This document shows, in pieces, positions 2,328 through 20,423 of a stretch of DNA of 64,000 bases. Location: NCBI GenBank assembly GCA_046765915.1, contig JBKPTH010000003.1, forward strand, positions 63,524 through 127,523, read 5' to 3'. Within the stretch, counting starts at the first letter, position 1. Each line of letters begins with the position of its first letter. The notes under the pieces are model-generated. The model did no database searches. It worked only from the letters and a program-made list of their open reading frames with translations, and was not told the DNA's origin. The stretch comes from Acidobacteriota bacterium. Its GTDB lineage: Bacteria > Acidobacteriota > Thermoanaerobaculia > Multivoradales > UBA5704. The position numbers and the translations under genes were made by a program.

Positions 2328-3956
2328 CTAGATGCAGCCCGGCTGCTTGAAGCTGCCGATGCGGGTCTTGAAGTCGAAGCTGCCGTTGTTGGCGTAATAC
2401 TCGGTGGTGTACCAGAAGGTGCAGCCGTCCGACGGATCGACGCTCATCGACGAGTAGTCGCCCCAGCGGTTGCTCGAGCTCTGCTGCACGCCGGCGCCGG
2501 CCTGCAGGGTCACCTCGGAGCCCACGGTGCCGAGCGGATCGCCAGCCGCCCGCGTGACGTAGCGGATCGAGGGTTTGACCTGCCGGCTCGACACGCTGTA
2601 GCCGACGGCGATGTTGCCCTGCTTGTCCTGGGCGATGCTGCCCGTCCAGCGGCTGTCGCCGGTCGGAGAAATGGTGCCGCTCTGCTGAAGGGTCCAGCCG
2701 CTGCCGCTGTTGCGCAGCTCGGCCCAGCGGACGCCGGCGACGTTGTGGCCGTTGACGTCGACCGTGTGATTGATCAGCAGGCTCTGGTAGCTGGGGAAGT
2801 TGCGGTACATGGCGCGGTACATGGTGAACTGGCCGATGGGATCCAACCGCTCGCCGGGCGAGGGCTGGACGATGCAGCCGCGGCTGAAGTTGCACAGGTT
2901 GGCGTCGAACTCAGCCGTGTTGACCTGCGGCAGCGCGGTGAACGTCGAGCTGCTCGGGGTCGTCCAATTGACGGCGAAGTTGAACATCCGGTAGCCGTCC
3001 GGTCCGGCGCCGGTGCCCCAGGTCTCGTCGTCCCAGGACTGGATGAACGGATTGGGCGCGCCCGCGGGCGGCGCCGTGCCGCCGTCGAAGTGCGCCGGCT
3101 GCATGCTGAAGTAGCACTCGGTGCCGCAGGTCAGGGGGCCGAACTTGACCATCTGCGCCGAGAGGCCGCTGAGCATCCGGCTGCGCTCGAAGGCCACGGC
3201 GATGACGCCCTCGAAGCTGCTGGCGAACTGGTTGGCGGTGATGTAATAGCCGTCCGGCCAGACGCCCATCTTCGGGTAATCGTTGAATTTGCCCGGGCTG
3301 ACCACGAAGTCGTAGCGGTAGAACGAGCCGGCCGGATTGCCGCTGGTCGACACCGCGACGCACTGGTGGCCGTCGGGGCCGCTGACGGCGAACTGGCTGA
3401 TCACCCAGCGGTCCGCCGCGTCGTCGTAGAGCACCGTGGGATCACCGTTGTTGAAGGTCTCGCAATCGCCGCCGAAGCCGGCCCACAGGTTGTTGATCTT
3501 CACCGGCCCGAAGGTCCGGACGCCTGCCTTGTTGTAGACCGCGTAGATGAGGTTGATCGTCTGCACGATGTCGCTCGGGCCGACGTCGAGGTTGGTATCG
3601 GGGGGCACGACCCGGCCGCCGACGACGACCGCGTTGTCGTCGTCGCTCAGCCCTTCGAAGCTGGCGCTCGGCGTGGGCGTAGCGCCGATGATGGGACCGT
3701 TGGCCAGCGGATCCGGAAGAGCGTCGTTGCCATGGTGCCGCTGCGCGAGGTCCGGCACCCGGTTGACGATCTCCCGGTTGGGTTGCGTCGCCGCGGCCTT
3801 GAGCGGCAGGAGCGCCAGCTCGGTGAACGGCGGCGAAACGTCGTGCCGGATGGCCTTGGACACCTGAGGCCGCAGGTCCGGGAAGTCCCCGGCTCGCAGC
3901 ACGCAGGGCGCGAACAGGACCACCAGACACAGGATGGCGGGAAGCGTTCTTCTCAT
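2328..3956 (-). CDS. Large secreted hypothetical protein (542 aa), possibly beta-propeller-like.
   Basis: Start MRRTLPAILCLVVLFAPCVLRAG (signal peptide) with RBS AGGAGAAAA. The ORF-track entry 2328..4100 has a longer, implausible N-terminus. No confident family assignment. Confidence 0.7.
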   Translation of the reverse strand: MRRTLPAILCLVVLFAPCVLRAGDFPDLRPQVSKAIRHDVSPPFTELALLPLKAAATQPNREIVNRVPDLAQRHHGNDALPDPLANGPIIGATPTPSASFEGLSDDDNAVVVGGRVVPPDTNLDVGPSDIVQTINLIYAVYNKAGVRTFGPVKINNLWAGFGGDCETFNNGDPTVLYDDAADRWVISQFAVSGPDGHQCVAVSTSGNPAGSFYRYDFVVSPGKFNDYPKMGVWPDGYYITANQFASSFEGVIAVAFERSRMLSGLSAQMVKFGPLTCGTECYFSMQPAHFDGGTAPPAGAPNPFIQSWDDETWGTGAGPDGYRMFNFAVNWTTPSSSTFTALPQVNTAEFDANLCNFSRGCIVQPSPGERLDPIGQFTMYRAMYRNFPSYQSLLINHTVDVNGHNVAGVRWAELRNSGSGWTLQQSGTISPTGDSRWTGSIAQDKQGNIAVGYSVSSRQVKPSIRYVTRAAGDPLGTVGSEVTLQAGAGVQQSSSNRWGDYSSMSVDPSDGCTFWYTTEYYANNGSFDFKTRIGSFKQPGCI

Positions 3957-4108
3957 CAATTTTTCTCCTTGCCTCCGGGGGCGGTATGGCGAGAAACGCG
4001 GCACGGTCGTACCTCTGCCGTCCCGCAGAATCGCAGATGTGCGCTGCTCTCCCTCAGCCCACCATCCCCTGATCTGGCTCTCTTTTTCTTGGGGGCTCAA
4101 CTAGTAAG

Positions 4109-5131
4109 GTGCTCAAGGCTCGACATTGCGAGACAGATTTTGCGAGCTACAATGCCGCTATGACCGTGCCTGCCCTTCGGGGGCCGCTTCTGACGATTCT
4201 GCTGTCGCTGTTTCTCGCCGCGGCGCCCGCCGCCGGCTGCTCGATCTGCCGCTGCGGCGATCCCACCTTCAACGCCCTCGGCACGGACGTCTACAAGGAC
4301 GGCGCCTTCCGCGTCTTCCTCGACTGGGAGCGCTTCGACAAGGAGCAGGGGAGCGCCGGCGAGGAGATCCTCGAGATCGCCAAGCACGAAGGGCACGAGC
4401 ATGGCGCGGCGCGCGAAGCCGTGGTCGAGAATCGCTTCACGACGTCGCTCTCCTACAGCTTCGGCGAGCGGGCGATCGGCGTCGCCCGTCTGCCGTGGAG
4501 CTCCCGCCGCCTCAGCGAGGAAGGGGAAGGCGGCGCCAGCGAGACCACCCGGGACCTCGCCGATCCGGAGATCTATGCCCTGGTGCGGCTATGGTCCTCG
4601 AAGTTCGCGCCGGACCTCGGCCGGCGCGCCTGGCTCTCCGCCCTCGGCGGCGTCAAGACGGACTGGGGGAAGAACGATCTCGAGCAAGGCGGGGAGAGGC
4701 TCGACGAGCACCTGCAGGCCGGCACCGGCTCGACCGACTGGTTCGGCGGCCTCTCCGGGCTCTACCTGCTCGACGCGCGCTCGGCGCTGTTCTCGTCCGT
4801 GCAAGTCCGCAAGACAGGCGCGAACGACTTCGGTTACGAGTACGGCGACCTGACGCTGGCCAACCTCGGCTACGAGCACAAGTTCTCCCAGCTCGCCGAC
4901 GGCGCGCTGGAGCTCAACTATCGCGACGCCGGAAGGGACCGCATCGACGCCGCCGGCACCCTGGACCCGAACACCGGCGGCGCCGTGCTCTACGTGACGC
5001 CGCGCCTGATCTTCGATCTCGGCCGCGGGCTCGTCGGCCGGCTGGCGGTGCAGGTCCCCGTCTACCGCGACCTCAACGGCGAGCAGACCGAGAAGGCGGT
5101 GGCGAACGTGGGCCTGACGTATCTGTTCTGA
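4109..5131 (+). CDS. Outer-membrane beta-barrel protein (C-terminal ...GLTYLF); alternative start at 4160.
   Basis: The signal peptide begins at MTVPALRGPLLTILLSLFLAAAPAAG (ATG 4160). The mature N-terminus has CSICRCGDP. Alternating amphipathic strands and a terminal aromatic F are typical of OM beta-barrels. A 64-nt copy of the 3' end is present at 45964..46027. Confidence 0.7.
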   Translation: MLKARHCETDFASYNAAMTVPALRGPLLTILLSLFLAAAPAAGCSICRCGDPTFNALGTDVYKDGAFRVFLDWERFDKEQGSAGEEILEIAKHEGHEHGAAREAVVENRFTTSLSYSFGERAIGVARLPWSSRRLSEEGEGGASETTRDLADPEIYALVRLWSSKFAPDLGRRAWLSALGGVKTDWGKNDLEQGGERLDEHLQAGTGSTDWFGGLSGLYLLDARSALFSSVQVRKTGANDFGYEYGDLTLANLGYEHKFSQLADGALELNYRDAGRDRIDAAGTLDPNTGGAVLYVTPRLIFDLGRGLVGRLAVQVPVYRDLNGEQTEKAVANVGLTYLF

Positions 5132-5308: not shown

Positions 5309-6901
5309 ATGAAGCGTCTCATCTGCTTCGGTGTGATCGCGTTGGTCCTGTCGGCGGTTCCGGGCTTCGCCGCCCCGGTAGCTCTCGAAGACATCTTCGC
5401 GGCGGCGCCGCAGGCCATGCCGGAGACCGTCGGCACGCCGCGGGATTCGGGCGCCCACGCCGCTGAGATGCGGGAGCTGCAGAAGCGGCTGGCCGCGAGC
5501 CAGGTCGGCCAGGCGTTGCGCCAGGAGATCGTCGTCTCGCTGAGCGGCGCCGAGCGCAAGCAGGTCGACGAGCCCAGCGACCGCAACGGCAAGTACCTGG
5601 TGGGCGTGGCCAAGTCGGCCGGCGTGACGGTCGACTTCTCGCCCGTGCGCGGTGACCGCGAGGTCAACCTGGCGGCCGGCGCCGCCCGCAGCAGCGCCAA
5701 GGGCGGCTTCGTGTGGACGGCCTCGGTGCACTCGCCGGGCGCCACGGCGTTGCGCGTGCATCTCACCGGCCTCGATCTGCCGGAGGGCAGCGAGCTCTAC
5801 GTCTACAACCGCGACGGCCAGGCCTTCGGCCCCTATACCAAGCGCGGTCCCCTTGGCGACGGCGACCTCTACACCAATACCGTCTTCGGCGACACGCTGA
5901 TGCTGCAGCTCCATCATCCCGAGGGCGCCGAGCGGGCTCCGTCGCCGCTGCGCATCGAGAGCGTCGGCGTCATGGGCAAGCGCTTCCTGGCGCCGCGCTA
6001 CGGCCCGAACGGCGCTTTCGACATCAACAACCTCGAAGCGCTCTCCAAGGCCAGCAACCTCTGCGCGACCAACGCCAACTGCGTGGTCAACGCGGCGTGC
6101 ACGTCGAGCGCCGCCGTCAACACGGCCAAGGACGCGGTGGCCAGCATCCTGTTCCAATCGGGAGCCAACTTCTACATCTGCACCGGCGGCCTGATCGCGG
6201 ACAACGTAACCACCTCGGTGATCCCCCTCTTCCTTACCGCCCATCACTGCATCAGCAGCAGCGGCGAGGCCTCCAGCCTGGAGACCTACTTCGACTACCA
6301 GACCACGTGCAGCAACCCCAACTGCACGCAGCCCTACAACAACACGGGCGAGACGGTGGGCGCCACCATCAAGGCCACCAACTCTTCCAGCGATTACTCG
6401 CTGGTGCAGCTCTCGTCGACGCCGGTGACGCCCGACGGCGTCGCCGCCTACCTCGGCTGGCTGAGCACGGCGGTGGCCAACACCAACAACTACGCGCTCT
6501 ACCGCATCAGCCATCCCAAGGGCTCGCCCCAGGCCTACACCGAGGGCGTGGTCGACACCAACAAGCCCACCTGCCGCTCCTTGCCGCGCGGCAGCTTCAT
6601 CTACAGCCGGGACACCCTGGGTGCGACGGAAGGCGGCAGCAGCGGCTCGCCGGTGGTCAACAGCTCCGGCCAGATCGTCGGCCAGCTCTACGGCGCCTGC
6701 GGCACCAACCTCAACGACGTCTGCGACGCGGCGAACAACGCCACGGTCGACGGCGCCTTCGCGGCCAGCTATCCCGCCCTGGCGCCCTTCCTGAGCCCGG
6801 GCGGCGGCGGCTGCGGCGCGGCGGGCTCGAGCTGCACCAGCAACAGCCAGTGCTGCTCCAACAGTTGCAAGGGCAAGCCGGGATCGCAGACCTGCAAGTG
6901 A
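5309..6901 (+). CDS. Secreted S1-family (trypsin/lysyl-endopeptidase-like) serine protease with a C-terminal Cys-rich tail.
   Basis: 530 aa with a signal peptide. Catalytic His context LTAHHC and Ser context GGSSGSPVV. C-terminal CGAAGSSCTSNSQCCSNSCKGKPGSQTCK (6 Cys in 30 aa). Strong RBS GACAAGGAGGT. Confidence 0.85.
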   Translation: MKRLICFGVIALVLSAVPGFAAPVALEDIFAAAPQAMPETVGTPRDSGAHAAEMRELQKRLAASQVGQALRQEIVVSLSGAERKQVDEPSDRNGKYLVGVAKSAGVTVDFSPVRGDREVNLAAGAARSSAKGGFVWTASVHSPGATALRVHLTGLDLPEGSELYVYNRDGQAFGPYTKRGPLGDGDLYTNTVFGDTLMLQLHHPEGAERAPSPLRIESVGVMGKRFLAPRYGPNGAFDINNLEALSKASNLCATNANCVVNAACTSSAAVNTAKDAVASILFQSGANFYICTGGLIADNVTTSVIPLFLTAHHCISSSGEASSLETYFDYQTTCSNPNCTQPYNNTGETVGATIKATNSSSDYSLVQLSSTPVTPDGVAAYLGWLSTAVANTNNYALYRISHPKGSPQAYTEGVVDTNKPTCRSLPRGSFIYSRDTLGATEGGSSGSPVVNSSGQIVGQLYGACGTNLNDVCDAANNATVDGAFAASYPALAPFLSPGGGGCGAAGSSCTSNSQCCSNSCKGKPGSQTCK

Positions 6902-6956: not shown

Positions 6957-7024
6957 CGCGTTTCCCAGTGACACGGATGAGCACTTCCGCGCACCTTTAA
7001 GATTGGTGCTCCTTGAACAGGCCT

Positions 7025-7098
7025 ACCCTCTCCCGTCCGGCCGTTCGGGCGGGATGAACCCATGAATCCCCGCTAGCGGGGAGACAAGGAGGTTTTTC
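7025..7098 (+). promoter_or_regulatory. Second copy of the conserved leader module (hairpin 7031..7052, CCCGTCCG-gccgtt-CGGGCGGG) plus the GACAAGGAGGT RBS.
   Basis: See 5239..5308. The identity continues into the signal-peptide coding region of 7099..7659. Confidence 0.6.
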
Positions 7099-7659
7099 AT
7101 GAAGCGTATCGTCTGGTTGGGTGTGATCGCGTTGCTGCTGGCGGCGATCCCGGCGGCGGCTTCGACCTTCATCGCGCTGAGCCACGCCGAGCTCGTGGCC
7201 GGGTCGGACGCGATCGTCCAGGGGAGGGTGCTGAAGGTGAGCTCGTTCTGGGAGAAGACCGGCCGCGTCATCGTCAGCGAGGCGATGGTGCAGGTCGAGG
7301 AGGTGGTCAAGGGCGCGGCACCGAGCGTGGTGATCGTGCGCACCTTCGGCGGCACCGTCAACGGCTTCACGGTGGAGGCCCACGGCTTTCCGAAGTTCGC
7401 CGTCAACGATCACGTCCTGCTCTATCTGCACGGCGCCGAGGGCACGGCCGAGGTGACCGGCTATCAGCAGGGCCAGTACCGCATCGCCCGCGACAAGGCG
7501 GGCAACGCGATGGCGGTGCCGTCCGTGGACGGCGGCGCCTTCCTGGTCGGCCGCGACGGCCGGCCGGCTCCCGGGGCCAAGGCCATGCGGCTCGAAACCC
7601 TCAAGAACTTGATCCGCGCCGAGGCCGCGAAGCCTGAAACCGGCCGCATCGCCAACTAG
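7099..7659 (+). CDS. Secreted hypothetical protein, metzincin-associated partner (copy 2).
   Basis: 186 aa with a signal peptide. Paralog of 1560..2126 (~60% identity by eye). Located directly upstream of metzincin 7686..8312. Confidence 0.75.
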   Translation: MKRIVWLGVIALLLAAIPAAASTFIALSHAELVAGSDAIVQGRVLKVSSFWEKTGRVIVSEAMVQVEEVVKGAAPSVVIVRTFGGTVNGFTVEAHGFPKFAVNDHVLLYLHGAEGTAEVTGYQQGQYRIARDKAGNAMAVPSVDGGAFLVGRDGRPAPGAKAMRLETLKNLIRAEAAKPETGRIAN

Positions 7660-10824: not shown

Positions 10825-11070
10825 CAACCCGTCAGTTGGACTCTCCAACCCGCCGGTTGCGCTCTCCAACTCGCCAGTTGAGATCTCCAACCCGTCGGTT
10901 GCGCTCTCCAACCGGCCAGTTGGACTCTCCAACCCGCCGGTTGGGCTCTCCAACTCGGCGGTTGCGCTCTCCAACCCGCCGGTTGGGCTCTCCAATCCGC
11001 CGGTTGGACGGCTCAACTCGCCGGTTGGAAGCCCCAACTACTCAGTTGAAGAGTCCAACTCGCGAGTTGC
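10825..11070. repeat. 21-bp tandem repeat array, ~11.5 copies (consensus CCGCCGGTTG[CG]GCTCTCCAAC).
   Basis: Direct reading: ccgtcagttggactctccaac / ccgccggttgcgctctccaac / tcgccagttgagatctccaac ... with progressive degeneration toward the 3' end. Period 21 = 7 codons. It encodes SPTRRLR heptads on the + strand and LESPTGG heptads on the - strand. Confidence 0.9.
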
Positions 11071-12004
11071 CCGGCCTCATGATTCCCGCCTTGTACTGAA
11101 TCGCCTCCGCGAGATGCGCGGCGCGGATGGCATCGCTCCCTGCGAGGTCGGCGACGGTCCGGGCGACTTTGAGGGCGCCCGTCACCGCACGGACCGAAAG
11201 TCCGAGCTTCTCGACGGCCTGGTCGCGGAGGACGCTACCGGCAGGGTCGAGGCGGCAATAGTGTTGGCTCGCGGCTGAGGCGAGGGAGGCATTGAGCCGG
11301 CCGCAACGCTCCTGCTGGATCCTCCGGGCAGCGGCCACCCGGCGGGCCACGGTCTCGGAACACTCTCCGGCGCTGGATCTCAACTCCTTGAGGCTGACGT
11401 GCGGCACCGGCACGACGAGGTCGAGCCGGTCGAGCATCGCTCCGGAGATCGGGCTGAGGTAACGGGCGACCGCGCGCGGCGAGCATCGGCACGGTTCCTC
11501 ATGACGCCAGCCGCAAGGGCAGGCGTTCATCGCGGCGATCAGGAGGAACCGCGCCGGCAAGGTTCGGCTCCGCCGCAGCAAGGGCACCGTCACGGTCCCG
11601 CGCTCCAGCGGCCCGCGCAGCCCGTCGAGCACCTTCCGCCGGAAAAGCGGCAGCTCGTCGAGAAAGAGCGTCCCGTAATGGGCGAGACTGACCTCGCCCG
11701 GCTTCCCTCTGCCGCCGATCATGCCGGTCGGAGTCGTGGCCGGCGGCGGCCTGCGGAACGGCCGGCGGGGATTCGGCGGCGCGCCGTTCCGGCTCAGGGC
11801 GTAGATCCCGGCCACCTCGGCGGCCTCTTCGTCCGTCAACGGCGGCAGCAAGGAGGGCACCCTCTCCGCCAGCATGGTCTTGCCGGCGCCGGGCGGCCCC
11901 ACCATCAACAGGTGATGACCCCCTGCCGCCGCCACCTCCAACGCCCGCTTGGCGGTTTCCTGTCCGCGCACCTCGGCAAGATCCGGTAGCAGGCTCCGCT
12001 CCAC
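11042..12004 (-). CDS. YifB/ComM-family Mg-chelatase-like AAA+ ATPase lacking the N-terminal Lon-like domain (GTG start).
   Basis: Collinear with the E. coli YifB AAA+ region onward: VRGQETAKRALEVAAAGGHHLLMVGPPGAGKTMLAERVPSLLPPL, SLAHYGTLFLDELPLF, ARFLLIAAMN, LSVRAVTGALKVARTVADL, AIQYKA. The ~180-aa N-terminal domain is absent. The tail overlaps the first units of the 21-bp repeat. Confidence 0.8.
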   Translation of the reverse strand: MERSLLPDLAEVRGQETAKRALEVAAAGGHHLLMVGPPGAGKTMLAERVPSLLPPLTDEEAAEVAGIYALSRNGAPPNPRRPFRRPPPATTPTGMIGGRGKPGEVSLAHYGTLFLDELPLFRRKVLDGLRGPLERGTVTVPLLRRSRTLPARFLLIAAMNACPCGWRHEEPCRCSPRAVARYLSPISGAMLDRLDLVVPVPHVSLKELRSSAGECSETVARRVAAARRIQQERCGRLNASLASAASQHYCRLDPAGSVLRDQAVEKLGLSVRAVTGALKVARTVADLAGSDAIRAAHLAEAIQYKAGIMRPGNSRVGLFN

Positions 12005-12005
12005 T

Positions 12006-12248
12006 TCAGGAGTGAATCCTCTGGAGGAGGCCGTCCAGCTCGTCGAGCTTCCGGAGGGCGGGCTCGAGGTCGTCCGTGAGCAGACACTCCATGGTGCCCA
12101 GCAGATCCGTCTCAGGATCTTCCATCTCGTCCTCGGGGACTTCGGGCTGCTGCCGCCGCAGGAAGTCCCGCGCCTCGCGGCCGAAGTCGCTCATCTCCTG
12201 CTTCAGCCTGCGCGCTCTCTCTCGAAGCTCTTCCGCTCGTGTCTCCAT
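12006..12248 (-). CDS. Small acidic coiled-coil hypothetical protein (80 aa). Its stop abuts the GTG start of the YifB-like gene.
   Basis: GGAGGAGGAC-ATG start. TGA-a-GTG coupling to the downstream gene. Highly charged sequence METRAEELRERARRLKQEMSDF... Confidence 0.5.
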   Translation of the reverse strand: METRAEELRERARRLKQEMSDFGREARDFLRRQQPEVPEDEMEDPETDLLGTMECLLTDDLEPALRKLDELDGLLQRIHS

Positions 12249-12375
12249 GTCCTCCTCCAAGGCGGCGGCTCGGCTGGGCGCGACAAGTTGCGTCTCGGCG
12301 CGACCGACGCATCTTGCTCGTTTATACTGTCGCTTGCTATTTATGTCAATAGAAGACGAGTTGGGAGGTTCTCGA

Positions 12376-12404
12376 TTTGACAGTCAGGGGTCTGTGGGAT
12401 AGAC
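12376..12404 (+). promoter_or_regulatory. Sigma-70-like promoter TTGACA-17 nt-TAGACT; would give a near-leaderless transcript for 12414..12875.
   Basis: TTGACA (12376..12381), a 17-nt spacer, and TAGACT (12399..12404) 10 nt upstream of the ATG. Low-GC divergent intergenic region. Confidence 0.45.
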
Positions 12405-12413
12405 TTTCTGGCG

Positions 12414-12875
12414 ATGATGGAGGAGACGGAGCAGCTACTGAAGGTATTGCGCACCGCCGTGCGCGTCCTCGGCCACACAAATCAGGAGATCGAGGACAAG
12501 CTCGGCGTCTACCACGGTTACCTGGGCCGGCTGTTCAAGGGCGCCATCCAGCTCCAGTTCGAGGACATCGTCAAGATCGCGCATGCCCTCGACATGGAAA
12601 CGGGCGAGCTCCTCCAGTTCGTCTACCCGCAGACGTCCAAGCCCGCCACCGAAGGCGCCAAGCGGCTGCGCGAGACGCTGCAGCAACTGCAACCGGCGAT
12701 GGCCGTGCCCGAAGTGCCTGCCCCCACTATCCCCGAACCCGTTGCGCCTCCCGCTCCCGCCGCTGCTGCCGCTTCAGACCTGAGCGCCAGGCTCGCGCAG
12801 GACCTCGATCAGTTGGTGCAGCAGAAGCTCGAGCAGCTCGTGGCCGGGTTGTTCCGGGGAGCCGGGCGGGAGTAG
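12414..12875 (+). CDS. HTH (XRE/Cro-like) DNA-binding protein with a Pro/Ala-rich C-terminal region.
   Basis: GHTNQEIEDKLGVYHGYLGRLFKGAIQLQFEDIVKIAHALDMETGELL resembles an HTH_XRE helix-turn-helix. 153 aa. Confidence 0.55.
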   Translation: MMEETEQLLKVLRTAVRVLGHTNQEIEDKLGVYHGYLGRLFKGAIQLQFEDIVKIAHALDMETGELLQFVYPQTSKPATEGAKRLRETLQQLQPAMAVPEVPAPTIPEPVAPPAPAAAAASDLSARLAQDLDQLVQQKLEQLVAGLFRGAGRE

Positions 12876-14883: not shown

Positions 14884-16164
14884 CTAGCGCTTCGCCTCCG
14901 GATCGCTCTCCAGCTTGCGCAGCTCGGCCGCCACCCTCTCGACCATCAGCCGCGTCGCCAGGCCGGCCTTGAGGCAATAGTGCAGGATGGCGATGCTGAC
15001 CAGCGCCTCGCGGTTCACCCCCAGCGCCAGGAAGACCTCGTAGGCGGTCGTCATCACCTCGCGCGCCTGACGGGTGTTTCCCCGGCCCAGGAGCACCCCC
15101 GCGAGGTCCAGCGAGGCGAGCGCGGCGTCGTAGGCGCGGCCGGCGGCTGTCATCCCGTCGCGCACTTCGAGGAAGGTCCGCTCCGCGCGCTCCAGCCTCT
15201 CGAGCCCGGCGTCGACGCGGCCCTCCAGCCAGCGCAGCTTGAGCTGGTTGATGCGGCCGCCCTGGTGAGTCTGCAAGGGCCGGAGCTCGAAGAGCTGCCG
15301 CTCCGCCTCGCGGAAGCGGCCACAGTCGCAGAGGATCCAGACCTGAGTCTGCATCGCGGCAAAGGCCAGGTCCGGGTCGCGCGAGTCCTCGATGAGGGCG
15401 AGGCTCCGCCGCAGGATGGCCAGGGCTTCCTCGGGATGGCCGGCGTAGGTCGCGCAGATGCCCAACTGGACGAGCGCTTTCCCGGCGAGGTGCTTGTCGC
15501 CGAGGGAGCGGTAGCCGCGGTAGACCTTCTTGAGCCTCGCGGCGGCCTCGTGGAACCGCCGCCGAGCAACGTCGAGGGGAGCCTCTCGTTCGAGGAGGAA
15601 GATCTCAAGCGAGAGATCCCGCGTGCCCAGCTCGAAGAGCTCGCGGGCGCGGCCCATGGCGGCGGCCGCCTCGTCGAGCCGCTGCGCCACCCGCAGGGCG
15701 TTGGCCACCGCGGCCTGGGCCCGGCACTGGAAGTCGAACGTCTGCTTGCAGCCATACCGGCGCGCCTTCAGGCGGATGGAAACCCGGTACGCCAGCCCGG
15801 CGAGCAGGAGCATGCGCTGCGGATTGTCGTGGCGGATTGCCCAGCTCCTCTCCAGGAGGGCCAGGAACCGCGCGTACATCCCGAAGTGGGAGGGGAGCTC
15901 CGCGGCGACCTTGACCTCGTCTTCGCTCTCGAACCAGGCGAGGATCTTCCTCGCCTGCGCCTCCTGGACGCGCAGGTGGCGCTCGAGCCCCGGGAGGCCG
16001 CCGAAGACCTTGTCGAGAACGTCGTCGTAATCGCGGTCCCGCGGCGCAATGGAGAGCGCGGCCGGCGGGCCGGCGCGGCGGCGGAGCGCGGCGAGCAGCC
16101 GGCCGCGGCAGCTCTCCCAGAGCCGCGCGAAACGGCCCCGCATCGTGTTGCCGCGGCGGGTCAC
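14884..16164 (-). CDS. TPR-like helical-repeat protein (paralog of 17355..18805).
   Basis: 426 aa. Shares the ...YDAALASLDL... block and overall helical-repeat character with the downstream + strand paralog. Confidence 0.65.
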   Translation of the reverse strand: MTRRGNTMRGRFARLWESCRGRLLAALRRRAGPPAALSIAPRDRDYDDVLDKVFGGLPGLERHLRVQEAQARKILAWFESEDEVKVAAELPSHFGMYARFLALLERSWAIRHDNPQRMLLLAGLAYRVSIRLKARRYGCKQTFDFQCRAQAAVANALRVAQRLDEAAAAMGRARELFELGTRDLSLEIFLLEREAPLDVARRRFHEAAARLKKVYRGYRSLGDKHLAGKALVQLGICATYAGHPEEALAILRRSLALIEDSRDPDLAFAAMQTQVWILCDCGRFREAERQLFELRPLQTHQGGRINQLKLRWLEGRVDAGLERLERAERTFLEVRDGMTAAGRAYDAALASLDLAGVLLGRGNTRQAREVMTTAYEVFLALGVNREALVSIAILHYCLKAGLATRLMVERVAAELRKLESDPEAKR

Positions 16165-16270
16165 GAGCTGATTCCCATGCGAGGCACTATTCTCTCATAA
16201 GCGGAAATCCAGGGCCAGCTCCGCAAAGGAAGGGCGGCCGCGCGGGGGCCGCCCCTACGGGAGATAGGCC

Positions 16271-16615
16271 CTAGTGGTCCGGGTCGGCTCCGCTTCCGGC
16301 ATTGCTCTGAGGCCGGCAGAGGGTGGAACCGCCCATCGGATCGATGCAGCCGCCTTCCTTTTGCCACGCCGGCGCGGGAGTCTCGGGCGGTCTCGTAATC
16401 CTCAAGGACGGGCAGGGGGTGGAACCGCCATCCGGATCGATGCAGCCCCCTGCCTTCTCCGCCCACAGCTCCGCGAGCCAGCTCCACGCGGCGTGAGCGA
16501 GGCCGGAGCCCGGCGCCCACTCCGGCCAGCCGAGCGCTCGGGCCGGAGCCGCCACGGCGAGCGCCGCCGCCAGGAGGGTGGCGGCGGCGGTAGATCGCAT
16601 CCATGTCCTCTTCAT
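16271..16615 (-). CDS. Small secreted protein with duplicated GGCIDPxGGSTxC motif (114 aa).
   Basis: MKRTWMRSTAAATLLAAALAVAAPARA signal peptide, RBS GAGGAGAGAC. Internal repeat AEKAGGCIDPDGGSTPC / QKEGGCIDPMGGSTLC. Other ORF-track entries over 16161..17227 were judged artefacts. Confidence 0.55.
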   Translation of the reverse strand: MKRTWMRSTAAATLLAAALAVAAPARALGWPEWAPGSGLAHAAWSWLAELWAEKAGGCIDPDGGSTPCPSLRITRPPETPAPAWQKEGGCIDPMGGSTLCRPQSNAGSGADPDH

Positions 16616-16952
16616 AGGTCTCTCCTCGGACCACGGGCCGGCCGGGCGCCGCCATGGCGCCAGCGCCCGCGGTCGCAACGTCCTGCCGTTGCCTGAAGCC
16701 CAAGTTTGGCACGCGGCGGGAAGAATTTTCCCGCCGGCGCACGCGCCGTTCCCGCCCGCCCAGGATTCCGCAAGCGACAGGCTAAGAACGTCATCGATTC
16801 CAGCTACTAGTTCTCTCAACAGACAACATCCTACGATACTAGACAAGGAATGCAAGTTTATGTCTGATAGAGTTGAAGATCGAGAGGCGCAATATGATAG
16901 ACTGGAATAACAGGCTGCAAGAAGCTGTTCGGCGGAGAAAGGAGCTTGCTGT

Positions 16953-17357
16953 ATGAGACAGACGAGCCATGATTCTGCGGCAAAGCTTGAGATTGTGCTG
17001 ACCCCTACCGAGCTGGAAGACCTGTCCGCGCGGATCGGGGAGCGGATCGTCCGCCTGCGCCAGCGGCGGGGATGGGACCGCGTGGAGCTGGCGCGGCGCC
17101 TCGGGGTGCGGCGCGAGAGGCTGGCGAAGTGGGAGCAGGGGAAGTGCGCGCCGCCCCTGGAGATGCTGATCCGCCTGGCCCGCACACTCGGTGTGTCCGT
17201 GGACGAGCTGATCACCGGCGAGCCCACGGTTCAGGGGTGTCTGACTCCGCGGCAGTACGAAGACCTGGAGCTCCTTCTCGAAGCCGTGCGGAAGGTGCTC
17301 CACGAGCCGGGGCCGGTTTCTTTGCTGGGCAAGGACGCCCAAGGAGGCAGGCGATGA
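16953..17357 (+). CDS. XRE-family HTH transcriptional regulator.
   Basis: LRQRRGWDRVELARRLGVRRERLAKWEQGKCAPPLEMLIRLARTLGVSVDELI is a canonical HTH_XRE. RBS AGGAG. The stop overlaps the ATG of the next gene (ATGA). The AT-rich upstream region carries direct repeats TGATAGAG/TGATAGAC (16865..16902). Confidence 0.85.
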   Translation: MRQTSHDSAAKLEIVLTPTELEDLSARIGERIVRLRQRRGWDRVELARRLGVRRERLAKWEQGKCAPPLEMLIRLARTLGVSVDELITGEPTVQGCLTPRQYEDLELLLEAVRKVLHEPGPVSLLGKDAQGGRR

Positions 17358-18805
17358 CATCCCTGACGGACCGGGTTGGAAAGGCTTTGAACCGCAAGAC
17401 CTACAGCGAGAGGCTGCAAGGCGTCCTGGCGGAGCTTTCGGAAGAGCGGAAAACGGACCTCCTGCACCTGCTGAGCTGCCCCGTCTGCCTGCCGGGTGCC
17501 CGCGAAAGCCTGCAACTCGCGCCCGGCCCTGACCTGCCCGAGCAGGCGCCGCCGGTGTACTCGGCGGAGTCCGGGGCTCTCCTCGCCGCGATGGAGGCCC
17601 GCGTGCCGGTCCTGGTGAAGCAGATGGAGGAGCAGAGGGCCGCGGCCCGGCGGCTTCTCGACGAGCTGCTGGCGCATCCGGCCGAGCGGCAGCTTGCGCT
17701 CGCCCGCAGCCCCGAGTTCGGCAGCCTCGATCTCGCCGACCTGCTTCTCGAGGAGAGCGCCGGAGCGCAGACAGACGATCCCGCGCGGGCCGAGGGCCTG
17801 GCCCGGCTGGCGCTGCCGATCCTCTATCAGCGCCATGCGGGAAAGGGTGCGGATCGGATCGCGGATCTGAAGGCCCGCGCCCTCGTTCTCCTGGGAAATG
17901 CCCGGCGCCTGCAAGGAGATCTCGAGGAAGCGGAGGCGCGGTTCCGGGAGGCGGCGTTTCACCTCACCGGTCCGCCCGACGGCATCGCGCGCGCCCTCTA
18001 CTGCCAGATGCTGGCCGCCTTGCGCCGGGACCAGCACCGGGAGGACGAGGCGATCGGATTGCTGTGGCGGGCGGCGCGGCTCTACGAGACGAACGGCGCC
18101 ATTCTCGATGCGGCGGCCTGCGCCGCCGAGCTGGGATTCCTCTATCTCGGGCAGGATCAGGTCCACGAAGCCTTCTGTCTCGCGGCAGCCGTCCCGTATC
18201 TGGATCTCTACCGCGACCTCCGGCTGGCCCTGCGGGCCCGGCTGGCGTTCGCCGTCGTCCAGGCGCGCCTCGGCTACAAATCGGCGGCGCGGAAATCAGT
18301 GGAGGAGGCGTGCCCGCTGTACTGCCACATCACCAGCTCGGCACAGATGGCGGAAGTGGCCTGGATGGAAGGCAAGGTGGCCCTGCTCACCGGTGACCGC
18401 GAAGACGCCGCGGCCCTGCTGGACACGGCGCGGCAGAGCTTCCTCTTGGTGGGGAACCTCTACGACGCGGCCCTCGCTTCGCTGGATCTCGTCCTGGCGT
18501 TTCCCAAGGCCCGCCGCCGTGCCGTGGAGGTGCACGCCCTGGTTCACGAGATCGTCGAGCGGTTCCCGGCGGGCCTGGACAGAGCCGAGGCCGTGAAGGC
18601 GTTGGCGGCCGTGGAGATGGCGGCCGCCGGCGTGGTGAAAGGAGGGTTCGAGGACGTGGTGGCCATGGCCGCCGAGCGGTTGCGCCGTGTCCGCCGCTAT
18701 CCGCAACTGCGCCTGCCGAGCCCGTTCCCGCCCTTCCACCCGCCGGCCCATGGAGCTGACGGTGAGAATCGCTCCGACTCAACGCTTGATCTCCGGAGGC
18801 CATGA
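17355..18805 (+). CDS. TPR-like helical-repeat protein co-transcribed with the XRE regulator.
   Basis: The start MTSLTDRVGK is preceded by AAGGAGG. 483 aa. Paralogous to 14884..16164. The long ORF-track entry 17072..18805 has an implausible upstream extension. Confidence 0.7.
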
Positions 18806-18836
18806 AGGCTTCCGGTGTTCCGAAAGGAGAAGCAGC

Positions 18837-19277
18837 ATGAACACGCAGACCGCAGTCGAACAGAAGACGCAGTACCCCGCCACGAAGCCCGGCACCGGCG
18901 ATCCCGCGGGCAGTGGCAGCGGGACCGGCGCCGGCGGCAACGGCACCGGTGGCCCCGGCACGCTGCCGGTGCCGGAGCAGCCGGGCGACGGCGAGCAGAA
19001 GCTCAAGTCCGAGCGGGTGCAGGAGGAGCTGAAGGCGATGGCCGGCTGGGCGCTGGCGCATGAGGAGCAGGCGGTCGAGAACGTGAAGACGTTCGCGACG
19101 CCGGGGCACGCCGGCCTCTACGGCGCCTTCGCGATCCAGTCCGCCGCCGCCAGCGGCTACCCGGTGACGGTGGGCCTCTCGGGCAACCAGGTGTGCGTCA
19201 CCGTTTTCGCGCCGGAGATCGACGGCTGCCTGGGCGAGGTGAGCTTGCCGGTGCTCGCCTTCGCGCGGCAGCTCTAG
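18837..19277 (+). CDS. Hypothetical protein (146 aa), Gly/Pro-rich N-terminal half.
   Basis: RBS AAAGGAGAAG then ATG. MNTQTAVEQKTQYPATKPGTGDPAGSGSGTGAGGNGTGGPGT... No signal peptide. Confidence 0.55.
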   Translation: MNTQTAVEQKTQYPATKPGTGDPAGSGSGTGAGGNGTGGPGTLPVPEQPGDGEQKLKSERVQEELKAMAGWALAHEEQAVENVKTFATPGHAGLYGAFAIQSAAASGYPVTVGLSGNQVCVTVFAPEIDGCLGEVSLPVLAFARQL

Positions 19278-19310
19278 AGAGGGTGAAAGCCCTCGGAAAG
19301 GAGAAGAACA

Positions 19311-19718
19311 GTGCCTAGCGTCAGCGCGTATGGCAAGGTCTTCCGCAAGTGGGAGAGAGTGGTCGGAGCCTGCAACGAGAACCTCAGCAAGCTGCCCGGT
19401 GTGGAGCCGATGAGGGACGAGGCCCTGGCCGTTCTCGAGGAGGCGAGAGCCCTCAAGATCCAGCAGGAGCAGCTCGAGGGCACCCGGAAAGCTGTGACGC
19501 AGCGGCTCAAAGGGCTCGTCGACGAAGGGTCGGTCAAGGTCCGCAAGCTCCAGTCCTTCGTCAAAGCCCATCTCGGTCCGCGCAACGAGCAGCTCCCGCA
19601 GTTCGGGGTTACTCCGGACCGGAAGCGGAGCGATCAGCCCAAGCGCAGCAAGAAGCCGGAAACCCCGGCTCCCGCACCAACCAACGATTCACCCGAAGCC
19701 GTCAAGGCGGCCGAATGA
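19311..19718 (+). CDS. Small basic hypothetical protein (135 aa); paralog of 19747..20106.
   Basis: GTG start with AGGAG 9 nt upstream. Shared block VKVRKLQSFVKAHLGPRNEQLPQFGVTP vs AIRLKCLVRAGFGRRDERLADFGMKP. Confidence 0.55.
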   Translation: MPSVSAYGKVFRKWERVVGACNENLSKLPGVEPMRDEALAVLEEARALKIQQEQLEGTRKAVTQRLKGLVDEGSVKVRKLQSFVKAHLGPRNEQLPQFGVTPDRKRSDQPKRSKKPETPAPAPTNDSPEAVKAAE

Positions 19719-19746
19719 GCCGGCTGCAGAAAGGAGGAAAGCTGTA

Positions 19747-20106
19747 ATGCCAAGGATAGGCATCAAACGCCGCGCCGAGCAGTGGAAAAGGCTGCTCGCC
19801 GCGGCCCGTGTCCATGAGATAGAGCTTCCCGTGATCGGTCCCTTCGCGGACGCGCTGGAAGAGTCTCTCGATGACGTGACCGCCACCCGGAAGCGGCAGG
19901 CGACCCTCAAGCGTCAGCAACAGGAGATCAGTCGGGAGCTCAGGGCCCACGTTTCTTCGGGCTCGGAAATGGCGATCCGGCTGAAGTGCCTGGTGCGGGC
20001 CGGTTTCGGCCGCAGGGACGAGCGGCTGGCCGACTTCGGAATGAAGCCCTTCGGCCTCTTCGCTCAGCCGGAAAGGAGGCAAAACGGCTCCCCCGGTTAC
20101 CACTAA
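19747..20106 (+). CDS. Small basic hypothetical protein (119 aa); paralog of 19311..19718.
   Basis: RBS AAAGGAGGAAAG then ATG. Confidence 0.55.
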   Translation: MPRIGIKRRAEQWKRLLAAARVHEIELPVIGPFADALEESLDDVTATRKRQATLKRQQQEISRELRAHVSSGSEMAIRLKCLVRAGFGRRDERLADFGMKPFGLFAQPERRQNGSPGYH

Positions 20107-20128: not shown

Positions 20129-20164
20129 GCCGGGGGCGTGTTGGAAGCACGCCCCCGGCGTTTT
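20129..20164 (+). terminator. Rho-independent terminator (GCCGGGGGCGTG-ttggaag-CACGCCCCCGGC + GTTTT).
   Basis: 12-bp perfect stem plus a T-run. A second palindrome GTTACC-tagaaa-GGTAAC at 20204..20221 probably serves the convergent minus-strand operon. Confidence 0.8.
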
Positions 20165-20423
20165 CCAGAGGAGCCTACACACATTATACCCCCAATAAAC
20201 TCAGTTACCTAGAAAGGTAACCGGGAGTTGATCATGCAAACCAACCGAGCTGCAGCGGGGCCGTGGCCACATGCTCGGCGAGGTCTGGACGGATTCTCAC
20301 TCGCCGATCTGGCTCCGGGCGATGATTTCCCTGATGCTCTGGGTACGCCGCATGGAGAAGGCAAGAAAGCTCGGGCAGCCGGTGGCCGGTCCGTTATGCG
20401 TTCTGACCGGGAGTCGCCGCGAG

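Follow-up and report, generated by a model that had tools for sequence, protein, structure and literature searches.

In a 64,000-nucleotide stretch of DNA from an Acidobacteriota bacterium (GenBank assembly GCA_046765915.1, contig JBKPTH010000003.1, positions 63,524 to 127,523 of the forward strand; hereafter the window), a group of regulatory and small genes was identified as one copy of a conserved cassette that occurs in Thermoanaerobaculia and other Acidobacteriota. The cassette comprises a Sec-exported pro-peptide (SEC), two paralogous cytoplasmic tetratricopeptide repeat (TPR) proteins (TPR-A and TPR-B), two small XRE-family helix-turn-helix (HTH) proteins (HTH1 and HTH2), and three small proteins (S1, S2, and S3). 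By analogy with characterized regulators, the locus may work as a peptide sensor of the RNPP/Rap type, a reading that we consider plausible but somewhat short of probable.

Conservation of the cassette and its peptide

A homolog search with TPR-B returned 52 proteins, and all of those with a source name came from Thermoanaerobaculia or Acidobacteria. A scan of species-representative genomes yielded 19 related loci (loci are given L numbers and related proteins P numbers below). All 19 lie in metagenome-assembled genomes (MAGs) of Thermoanaerobaculia/Acidobacteriota and share one gene order. A neighborhood that is not conserved had been named by the first-pass annotation of the window as grounds for refutation, and the order was found to be kept in these 19 loci. 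In tblastn searches with the window proteins, the recurring layout consisted of HTH2 on the plus strand converging on TPR-A, the peptide gene followed by TPR-A on the minus strand, and the diverging series HTH1, TPR-B, S1, S2, and S3 on the plus strand. The peptide gene, which lies 106 nt upstream of TPR-A on the same strand in the window, was found in 16 of the 19 loci. At least one gene of the S2/S3 family follows TPR-B in all 19, with tandem arrays of up to 4–5 copies in L020 and L021. HTH2 is located convergently beside the 3' end of TPR-A in other loci as well; its homologs adjoin TPR-A in 12 loci and distant TPR-A-type genes in L022, L029, and L032. Because HTH2 recurs in the cluster layout, the HTH gene near position 12399 belongs to the system. 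HTH1 is missing from 10 of the 19 loci, and therefore the HTH1/TPR-B pair is an accessory elaboration and not the core of the cassette. The constant neighbor of the peptide gene in the relatives is a gene of the TPR-A type, not the HTH1/TPR-B pair. TPR-B identity between loci ranges from 34 to 67%.

Some copies are rearranged. In L003, whose contig is shared with L002, TPR-A is followed by an overlapping HTH gene unlike HTH2, and the 3' end of TPR-A is duplicated together with this HTH gene ~3 kb away (L002 158..708 and 3132..3700). In L029, an inserted IS200-type (Y1_Tnp) transposase gene (6995..7657) separates TPR-A from HTH2; in other respects the cluster is canonical.

The description of a small secreted peptide with duplicated motifs proved correct. 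SEC consists of a Sec signal peptide with a cleavage site at about APARA/LGW, a Trp-rich helix, and two Cys-bracketed loops of the CIDPxGGSTxC type, GGCIDPDGGSTPC and GGCIDPMGGSTLC. Its orthologs in the 16 loci share the Sec signal peptide with an AxA end and the Trp-rich helix (W..W..LW). The motif G-[IVM]-D-P-[NDE]-G is found in them one, two, or three times, and GIDPNG forms the C terminus of many orthologs. In a profile search, the family grew to at least 155 proteins of ~90–125 aa, all annotated as hypothetical, and no Pfam domain was found in any of the 155. Each protein carries one to four copies of the motif (K/D)xGxGIDPNG. Motif statistics were compiled for 120 listed members of the at least 155. 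An AxA-type cleavage site was present in 118 of the 120 proteins, and the residue counts over their 222 motif copies were K/D(185)-x-G(198)-x-G(180)-I(201)-D(219)-P(222)-N(182)-G(222). The final Gly of the motif is the C terminus of the protein in 70 of the 120, and a Cys-bracketed version of the motif (C-x-IDPxG-x0-5-C) occurs in 14, including the protein of the window. Tandem units that follow a charged residue, together with a C-terminal unit, resemble the features of pro-peptides such as Phr and AimP and suggest that the protein is a precursor of this kind. Candidate ligands are GxGIDPNG and KAGGCIDPDGGSTPC. Tandem duplicate peptide genes were observed in L004 (5537..5836 and 5980..6234) and in L027 (3188..3535 and 3720..4127).

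The association of peptide, TPR, and HTH genes extends to large divergence. Five TPR-A-type loci with ~30% identity, which are nearer to TPR-A in profile comparisons (L022, L023, L024, L031, and L032), were used as distant starting points. A motif peptide was adjacent in four of the five and was not found at L024. L022 contains a 46-aa ORF ending in GGCVIDPDGRPFCQQ and a signal-less 41-aa ORF with VLDPDG; another TPR-A-like gene and a gene like HTH2 are present as well. L023 encodes a fused HTH-TPR protein of 499 aa, and the product of the divergent gene is 122 aa long and has a signal peptide and three copies of GCSLDP[NDS]GCRM, of which the third is C-terminal. Directly upstream of the TPR gene of L031 lies a mini-ORF of ~48 aa with ...GSILDPNGG...GSILDPDGRT. 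In L032, ...GSGLDPDGRP is encoded upstream of the TPR gene; downstream follow a gene for a protein with a signal peptide and the C terminus GGGCLDPLGGGCHG, then another TPR-A-like gene and, in convergent orientation, an HTH2-like gene. In the reverse direction, four divergent peptides served as starting points (L026–L029). An XRE gene adjoins all four peptides, and a TPR homolog adjoins three of them (E 1e-11 to 1e-134). In L026, the neighbors of the peptide gene are a fused HTH-TPR-A-like gene (E 1.6e-64) and a small XRE gene. The two peptide genes of L027 lie in tandem and are accompanied by a TPR-A-like gene and by a divergent HTH1-like/TPR-B-like pair whose genes overlap. The peptide of L028 has a divergent HTH1-like gene, and L029 is a canonical cluster. 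That the peptide and the TPR/HTH proteins work together is suggested most strongly by this reciprocal linkage of gene neighborhoods.

A second, shorter class of candidate peptides, 41 to ~48 aa long, was noticed in three of these loci (L022 4743..4868, L031 3757..3930, and L032 3641..3877). The hydrophobic N terminus of its members is rich in Trp/Phe and is not a classical signal peptide; (I/V/L)LDPDG is present once or twice, and the genes lie directly upstream of the distant TPR-A-type genes. The ORF after the TPR gene of L031 (5420..6088) contains two runs of short repeats (MTWAAAR..., then PDDLGSC...) and is probably tandem-repeat DNA and not a normal gene.

The split HTH1/TPR-B regulator and the candidate TPR receptors

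The window has a GC content of ~68%, at which spurious ORFs are frequent. A public gene call, made independently on the same DNA, contains all the genes listed in the first-pass annotation, with products of 426, 114, 134, 483, 146, 135, and 119 aa. The ATGA overlap between HTH1 and TPR-B was found as described (gcgATGAca), and the start of TPR-B was corrected to 17354, since the frame given as 17355..18805 contains eight in-frame stops. HTH1 was confirmed as an XRE-family protein with 54.9 bits against Pfam HTH_3 (cut-off 23). It has a helical tail at its C terminus. Among the families of phage repressors, it matched RstR (E 5.7e-14) and those of PHROG. HTH2 scores just under the same cut-off, with 22.4 bits. 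The proposed paralogy of the divergent TPR gene and TPR-B was supported by 28% identity over 325 aa (E 3e-7).

The 4-nt overlap between HTH1 and TPR-B recurs in L003, L004, L005, and L007, and the two genes are fused in frame in L006 and L010. Natural fusions were also found among the related proteins. P0009, P0010, P0012, and P0017 are 558 aa long and 50–53% identical to TPR-B, and each has an HTH_3 domain at the N terminus that aligns with HTH1. An N-terminal XRE HTH on the TPR polypeptide is also present in P0045 and L026; in the window the two parts are separate ORFs. Because sister lineages encode one 558-aa protein, HTH1 is, as judged from these alignments, the DNA-binding half and TPR-B the other half of a genuinely split regulator, whose halves are translationally coupled. 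Fusion and translational coupling favor an interaction between HTH1 and TPR-B, which we predict. The initial proposal of a split RNPP-like sensor thus held for the split of HTH and TPR, as seen from the 558-aa fusions, and was not supported for kinship, as sequence or profile homology to the RRNPPA family was not found.

No RRNPPA model in Pfam or NCBIfam matched TPR-A or TPR-B. In phmmer searches against the PDB, TPR-B had no match, and the best match of TPR-A was RapF with a nonsignificant E-value of 0.12; direct homology to solved RNPP structures was rejected on this result. The structural model of TPR-B (predicted local distance difference test, pLDDT, 87.7) shows four short N-terminal helices, a long helix, and ~8 TPR pairs. 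A Foldseek search with this model returned Rap, NprR, LGN, MalT, and proteasome lid subunits in mixed order at E ~1e-4. A fold search with a natural HTH-TPR fusion, P0045 (pLDDT 86.5), gave LGN (22.1), Pins (21.2), NprR (18.0, rank 4), and PlcR (14.4, rank 28), and AimR, Rgg, and PrgX were absent from the best 60 fold matches listed. Full-length PlcR, AimR, and Rgg were not retrieved with this fusion. The structure search that had been suggested as a check therefore cut both ways: Rap and NprR are among the nearest solved folds, but LGN and Pins rank higher for P0045. The models support in part a TPR fold of the peptide-binding type of superhelix, with RNPP receptors among the nearest solved examples. 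TPR-A is a candidate peptide receptor.

At its N terminus, TPR-B has a 4-helix module with the sequence HLLSCPVC (HxxxCxxC). Full-length TPR-B orthologs keep LLHLLxCxxC, and most TPR-A orthologs keep an N-terminal LRHLLxxCxxCL; the H..C..C motif is degenerate in TPR-A of the window. The size of the receptor family was determined in an exhaustive profile search, which gave 4,458 cluster representatives at E<=1e-30. Among the best 148 of these 4,458, an N-terminal H-x(3-6)-C-x2-C is present in 104 and an N-terminal XRE HTH takes its place in at least 17, and none has both. Neither the window proteins nor N-terminal fragments gave a match to Pfam zf-HC2, and in 2 of 10 relatives the model matched below threshold at the right position (17.2 and 15.6 bits; cut-off 22.2). 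No sigma-factor gene was found in the cluster at any inspected locus. The N-terminal module may be an adaptor that binds a separately encoded XRE protein, like the N-terminal domain of Rap. The two alternative modules, H..C..C or HTH, would then parallel the effector domains of Rap on the one hand and NprR/PlcR on the other.

Among the longer relatives, P0293–P0297, P0301, and P0310 (720–1160 aa) match the TPR profile in two stretches. Several of them have HTH-like N termini, and they are apparently tandem-fused versions of the receptor.

Leader RNA, promoters, and accompanying genes

Cross-locus conservation was seen in the ~110 nt that precede the start codon of the peptide gene, where the stems show compensating changes. 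This leader was analyzed by alignment, RNAalifold, and a covariance model that was searched in 361 kb of sequence. It contains a −10-like TGnCAnACT, a first hairpin, and an outer CCGCGG stem around the hairpin GGCGCC-AUGGC-GGCGCC. The 3' arm of the outer stem stops just before the ribosome-binding site, and therefore a role in translation or mRNA stability is plausible. The covariance model had 19 matches in the 361 kb, all directly upstream of peptide genes and 4 of them outside the seed. They are located in the window, L001, L003, L004 (two copies), L006–L009, L011–L013, L016, L018–L021, L028, and L029; each of the tandem peptide genes of L004 has a leader copy of its own. In the alignment, 92% of the cells were paired, compared with 81% in shuffles (0 of 500 reached the observed value) and 34–45% when the pairing partners were slid. 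Nine pairs were changed on both sides, in an alignment that was fitted to the model and in which most double changes stem from one clade split. Rfam gave no match for the leader or anywhere in the window, and the window contains no tRNAs. On the strength of these alignments, the leader is a candidate for a new cis-regulatory RNA.

The stretch upstream of HTH1 is AT-rich, as had been reported (GC 0.45 compared with 0.675 for the window). The HTH1 promoter of the window includes TGATAGAC and has a −35-like TTGAAG, 19 nt, and the −10 hexamer TAGACT at 16898..16903. The corresponding pattern yTAGACa-N18-gTAGACT, a −35-like/−10-like pair, is common to eight other loci, and TTGAAG probably serves as the −35 element in the window. 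The HTH2 promoter was located in a promoter scan, and TAnnnT is found at the same position in 12 other loci. Its −10 element lies ~8 nt before the ATG; the mRNA would therefore have little or no leader.

Two repeats had been singled out in these regions. The direct repeats TGATAGAG (at 16865) and TGATAGAC (at 16895) exist, but the 8-mer TGATAGAS is not found above chance level (3 found, 0.84 expected; 5 of 100 shuffles reach 3), and the copies are best read as promoter elements. Likewise, GATAGACT does recur at the other HTH promoter, being found exactly twice in the window (12398 and 16896), but this count is not significant either (11 of 100 shuffles reach 2). According to the sequence comparison, GATAGACT contains the −10 hexamer TAGACT of both HTH-gene promoters and is not a regulator-specific repeat. 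Both TGATAGAS and GATAGACT were rejected as operator repeats, with counts at chance and a cross-locus alignment that identifies them as −35/−10-type elements. The 11-nt sequence GCAAGCGACAG occurs at 12327..12337 in the HTH2 upstream region and, inverted, at 16770..16780 in the peptide/HTH1 intergenic region, where ~0.025 such matches are estimated by chance; as an operator common to both HTH promoters it was rejected, because its core is not conserved in other loci. The inverted repeat GGGAAGAATTTTCCC (CGGCGGGAAGAATTTTCCCGCCG, 16714..16736) overlaps the −35 region of the peptide promoter, and repeats of the GGAAGAA..TTCTTCC type are found at the same position in the nearer loci. This repeat is a candidate operator.

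The hairpin between the peptide gene and TPR-A folds weakly (RNA fold z −1.7) and is possibly a partial terminator. The terminator of the HTH1-TPR-B-S1-S2-S3 operon consists of a 14-bp GC hairpin and the sequence GUUUUCC, with a minimum free energy z-score of −3.86; none of 200 shuffles folds as well.

The three small genes of this operon are each preceded by the ribosome-binding site GAAAGGAG, in agreement with the strong sites described, and the predicted paralog pair was recovered as S2 and S3 (28% identity over 90 aa, E 2e-12). S1 has a low-complexity N terminus and a C-terminal domain resembling pterin-4a-carbinolamine dehydratase (PCD)/DCoH. Its sole profile match in the PDB is the putative PCD 3jst (E 0.069), and the NCBIfam PCD model matches with E 0.032. 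LPV or YPV is found at the site where the catalytic His-His-Pro would presumably be expected. The S2/S3 family has at least 136 members, all hypothetical, and the named ones all come from Thermoanaerobaculia or Acidobacteria. No Pfam model for the family was found. Its members consist of a ~100-aa helical domain and a basic, Pro-rich tail, FGxxPxRKRxRK, which is FGVTPDRKRSDQPKRSKK in S2. One source labels a member of the family "H-NS." Searches against the PDB returned designed or low-complexity helical proteins only, so a fold could not be assigned.

Between HTH2 and TPR-A, downstream of the latter, the window contains two genes for secreted proteins with a GC content of 0.587, compared with 0.675 for the window. 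The 331-aa protein has a Pfam SPM match and Asp-rich, calcium-binding-like repeats. No homologs of the 331-aa and 266-aa proteins were found in the 19 related loci; the two genes are inserted in this genome only and are probably not core to the system. On the far side of HTH2, a ComM/YifB-like Mg-chelatase gene (11042..12004, minus strand) encodes a 320-aa protein with the domains Mg_chelatase and Mg_chelatase_C. The usual N-terminal domain is seemingly lacking, with an unrelated 80–84-aa ORF (12006..12260) in its place, and the gene may be truncated. An origin of the cassette in defense systems or phages was considered and rejected for the non-HTH proteins, which had no meaningful PADLOC or PHROGs match; these proteins reached at best a match to a generic TPR model (E 0.018) and, in the case of S1, weak matches of low complexity.

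Table 1. Positions of the cassette genes and associated elements in the window
Feature	Position	Strand	Basis
HTH2 promoter	12377..12405	+	promoter scan; TTGACA, 17 nt, TAGACT
HTH2, 153-aa XRE-like HTH protein	12414..12875	+	Pfam HTH_3 E 1.2e-4
Two secreted-protein genes, 331 and 266 aa	12897..14689	−	public gene call
TPR-A, 426-aa cytoplasmic TPR protein	14884..16164	−	TPR_12 E 1.2e-10
GC-rich hairpin, then UUCCUUU	16232..16254	−	palindrome search and RNA fold
SEC, 114-aa pro-peptide	16271..16615	−	signal peptide, motif family
Structured 5' leader and core promoter of peptide gene	16615..16727	−	alignment, RNAalifold, covariance model
HTH1-operon promoter	16873..16903	+	cross-locus pattern
HTH1, 134-aa XRE-family DNA-binding protein	16953..17357	+	HTH_3 E 8.8e-15
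TPR-B, 483 aa	17354..18805	+	ATGA overlap with HTH1
S1, 146 aa	18837..19277	+	present in 11 loci
S2, 135-aa helical protein	19311..19718	+	lineage-specific family
S3, 119 aa, S2 paralog	19747..20106	+	sequence comparison
Intrinsic terminator of HTH1-TPR-B-S1-S2-S3 operon	20129..20166	+	fold z-score

Proposed mechanism and relation to known systems

In the proposed mechanism of a peptide sensor, the pro-peptide would be exported and then cleaved; the repeats each follow a basic or acidic residue, and the motif forms the C terminus of most family members. After re-entry into the cell, the short peptide would bind the concave groove of TPR-A and/or TPR-B. Peptide binding would alter the grip of the TPR N-terminal module on the XRE partner, in parallel to Rap of plasmid pLS20, which acts on the HTH repressor Rco. 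As a result, transcription would be switched for the HTH1-TPR-B-S1-S3 operon and, as feedback, for the peptide gene. S1–S3 would be the output, and S2/S3 may bind DNA via their basic tails, a DNA-binding role that is speculation.

Several observations weigh against this mechanism. The missing sequence and profile homology to any RRNPPA family, with RapF at E 0.12 as the best match, is one of them. The motif is almost invariant across distant species, whereas the known pheromones of quorum sensing have diversified into pherotypes. Since Acidobacteriota have two membranes, a peptide of ~9 residues would have to cross the outer membrane to act between cells. It would also need an importer, and a transporter gene is not part of the cluster. 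The adjacency of the genes is equally compatible with the peptide being a regulated product and not a ligand. The HTH1/TPR-B pair is not universal, with HTH1 absent from 10 of the 19 loci. Finally, the conserved His/Cys motif suggests another input, zinc or redox.

In the main rival explanation, which we rate as rather unlikely, the peptide would be output and not signal. The XRE/TPR module, with the TPR protein as anti-factor, would sense zinc or thiol oxidation via HxxxCxxC and control the secreted GIDPNG-repeat protein together with S1–S3, similar to zinc-binding anti-sigma factors; the secreted protein would act outside the cytoplasm, where it might, for example, bind metal or calcium, belong to the matrix, or serve as an antimicrobial. 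The high proportion of H-x(3-6)-C-x2-C (104 of 148 family representatives) and the zf-HC2 signal at the right position in 2 of 10 relatives are in line with this, as is the fact that regulator genes frequently adjoin their targets. Invariance of the motif suits a structural or chemical role better than a pheromone, and the cluster lacks an importer gene. However, zf-HC2 never reached threshold and was undetected in the window proteins, where the motif is degenerate in TPR-A; in the fused relatives an HTH replaces the His/Cys motif while the peptide gene is kept, and the cluster contains no sigma factor. Ends at the motif and tandem repeats after K or D are features of a processed pro-peptide, and in L022, L031, and L032 signal-less motif mini-peptides of ~45 aa are encoded immediately before the TPR-A-type genes.

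The cassette might instead serve a mobile element (prophage, integrative and conjugative element (ICE), or genomic island) as its immunity or regulatory module, with a cI-like XRE repressor, a TPR anti-repressor, and small cargo genes, analogous to Rap/ImmR of ICEBs1 and Rap/Rco of pLS20. We consider this very improbable. HTH1 does match phage repressors, the flanking genes vary between genomes, the neighboring ComM-like gene looks truncated, and some copies contain an IS200-type transposase (L029) or partial duplications (L003). But integrase, replication, conjugation, and phage structural genes are absent beside the cluster at the loci inspected, the non-HTH proteins have no meaningful PHROGs or PADLOC match, the cassette is present in a single copy in the window, and the divergence of TPR-B resembles vertical descent within the class. 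A grouping of the genes by chance, with some of the small ORFs being spurious, would be conceivable in DNA of 68% GC, where long spurious ORFs are frequent. Its probability is negligible: eight genes keep their order, orientation, and protein-level conservation in many MAGs, each small-protein family has more than 130 members, and the small genes have strong ribosome-binding sites and are followed by a terminator at the operon end. The synteny and family data therefore refute this explanation.

The RRNPPA family has been described only from Bacillota and their plasmids, phages, and mobile elements. The homologs of the cassette proteins that carry a source name all come from Thermoanaerobaculia or Acidobacteriota. 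The cassette shares several features with its members (NprR-NprX, PlcR-PapR, Rap-Phr, AimR-AimP, Rgg-SHP, and PrgX), namely a cytoplasmic TPR-superhelix protein encoded beside a secreted pro-peptide, an XRE-type HTH as DNA-binding module, which is fused in the relatives P0009, P0045, and L026, and tandem peptide units with the motif at the extreme C terminus of the precursor, as in Phr and AimP. It differs from them in that sequence homology is not detectable and the fold match is no better than that to eukaryotic LGN/Pins. The hosts are two-membrane Acidobacteriota in place of Bacillota, receptor and HTH of the window are on separate polypeptides, and an HxxxCxxC N-terminal module is added. 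Moreover, the peptide motif is nearly invariant in place of pherotype-diversified, and the cassette has two receptor paralogs and two HTH proteins.

On pLS20, Rap binds the separate HTH repressor Rco under control of the Phr peptide. This system (Rap/Rco/Phr*) and RapI-PhrI/ImmR of ICEBs1 resemble the proposed circuit of the cassette in having an HTH-less TPR receptor, a separate HTH repressor, and an inhibitory secreted peptide. In contrast to HTH1 and TPR-B, their proteins are neither fission products of one gene nor translationally coupled; they are not homologous to those of the cassette, and the N-terminal domain of Rap is a 3-helix bundle without the His/Cys motif. The first-pass annotation had called the arrangement unrecognized. 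A split of HTH and TPR has a precedent in Rap, Rco, and Phr of pLS20, but a description of the cassette or the motif was not found in literature searches on GIDPNG and on peptide quorum sensing in Acidobacteria.

The pattern L..geLs.e.r..l..HLL.C..C at the N terminus, with a His ~25–30 residues upstream in many relatives, is similar to the signature of the zinc-binding anti-sigma (ZAS) domain (zf-HC2; RsrA, ChrR). TPR-B shares with this group the sequence HLLSCPVC and the predicted position as cytoplasmic partner of a DNA-binding factor. It differs in the zf-HC2 scores, which are sub-threshold in 2 of 10 relatives, with no match in the window proteins, in the absence of an adjacent extracytoplasmic function (ECF) sigma gene, and in its TPR-superhelix C-terminal domain. 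NsdA-family TPR-like regulators and MalT-type sensors are different in that the STAND ATPase domain is absent here, the scores are below thresholds, and the partners are others.

Even if the peptide is output, the peptide, S2/S3, and H..C..C-TPR families and the candidate cis-regulatory RNA are new. The TPR sensor occurs with three output couplings: a fused HTH, a split and translationally coupled HTH, and a zinc-finger-like adaptor. Beyond the single locus, it is possible, though we lean against it, that Acidobacteriota have a cytoplasmic-receptor peptide signaling of their own, either an independent invention of the RRNPP type or a very distant relative. Such signaling, held with the same reserve, would use a near-invariant (K/D)xGxGIDPNG signal, presented in some lineages as a disulfide-bracketed loop, TPR receptors, and control by the leader RNA. 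The receptor would have one of two output modules, a suggestion no firmer than the last: an XRE HTH, or a zinc-finger-like domain holding an XRE protein that is encoded separately.

Signaling by peptides that act on cytoplasmic TPR receptors is considered a hallmark of Gram-positive Bacillota and of their phages and plasmids. If the proposed sensor is real, the receptor-propeptide logic would extend to an abundant, poorly cultured, two-membrane soil phylum, and with 4,458 receptor-family representatives it would possibly constitute a major unrecognized family in soil and sediment bacteria. The near-invariant motif is a candidate ligand that can be synthesized, which makes acidobacterial peptide signaling directly testable.

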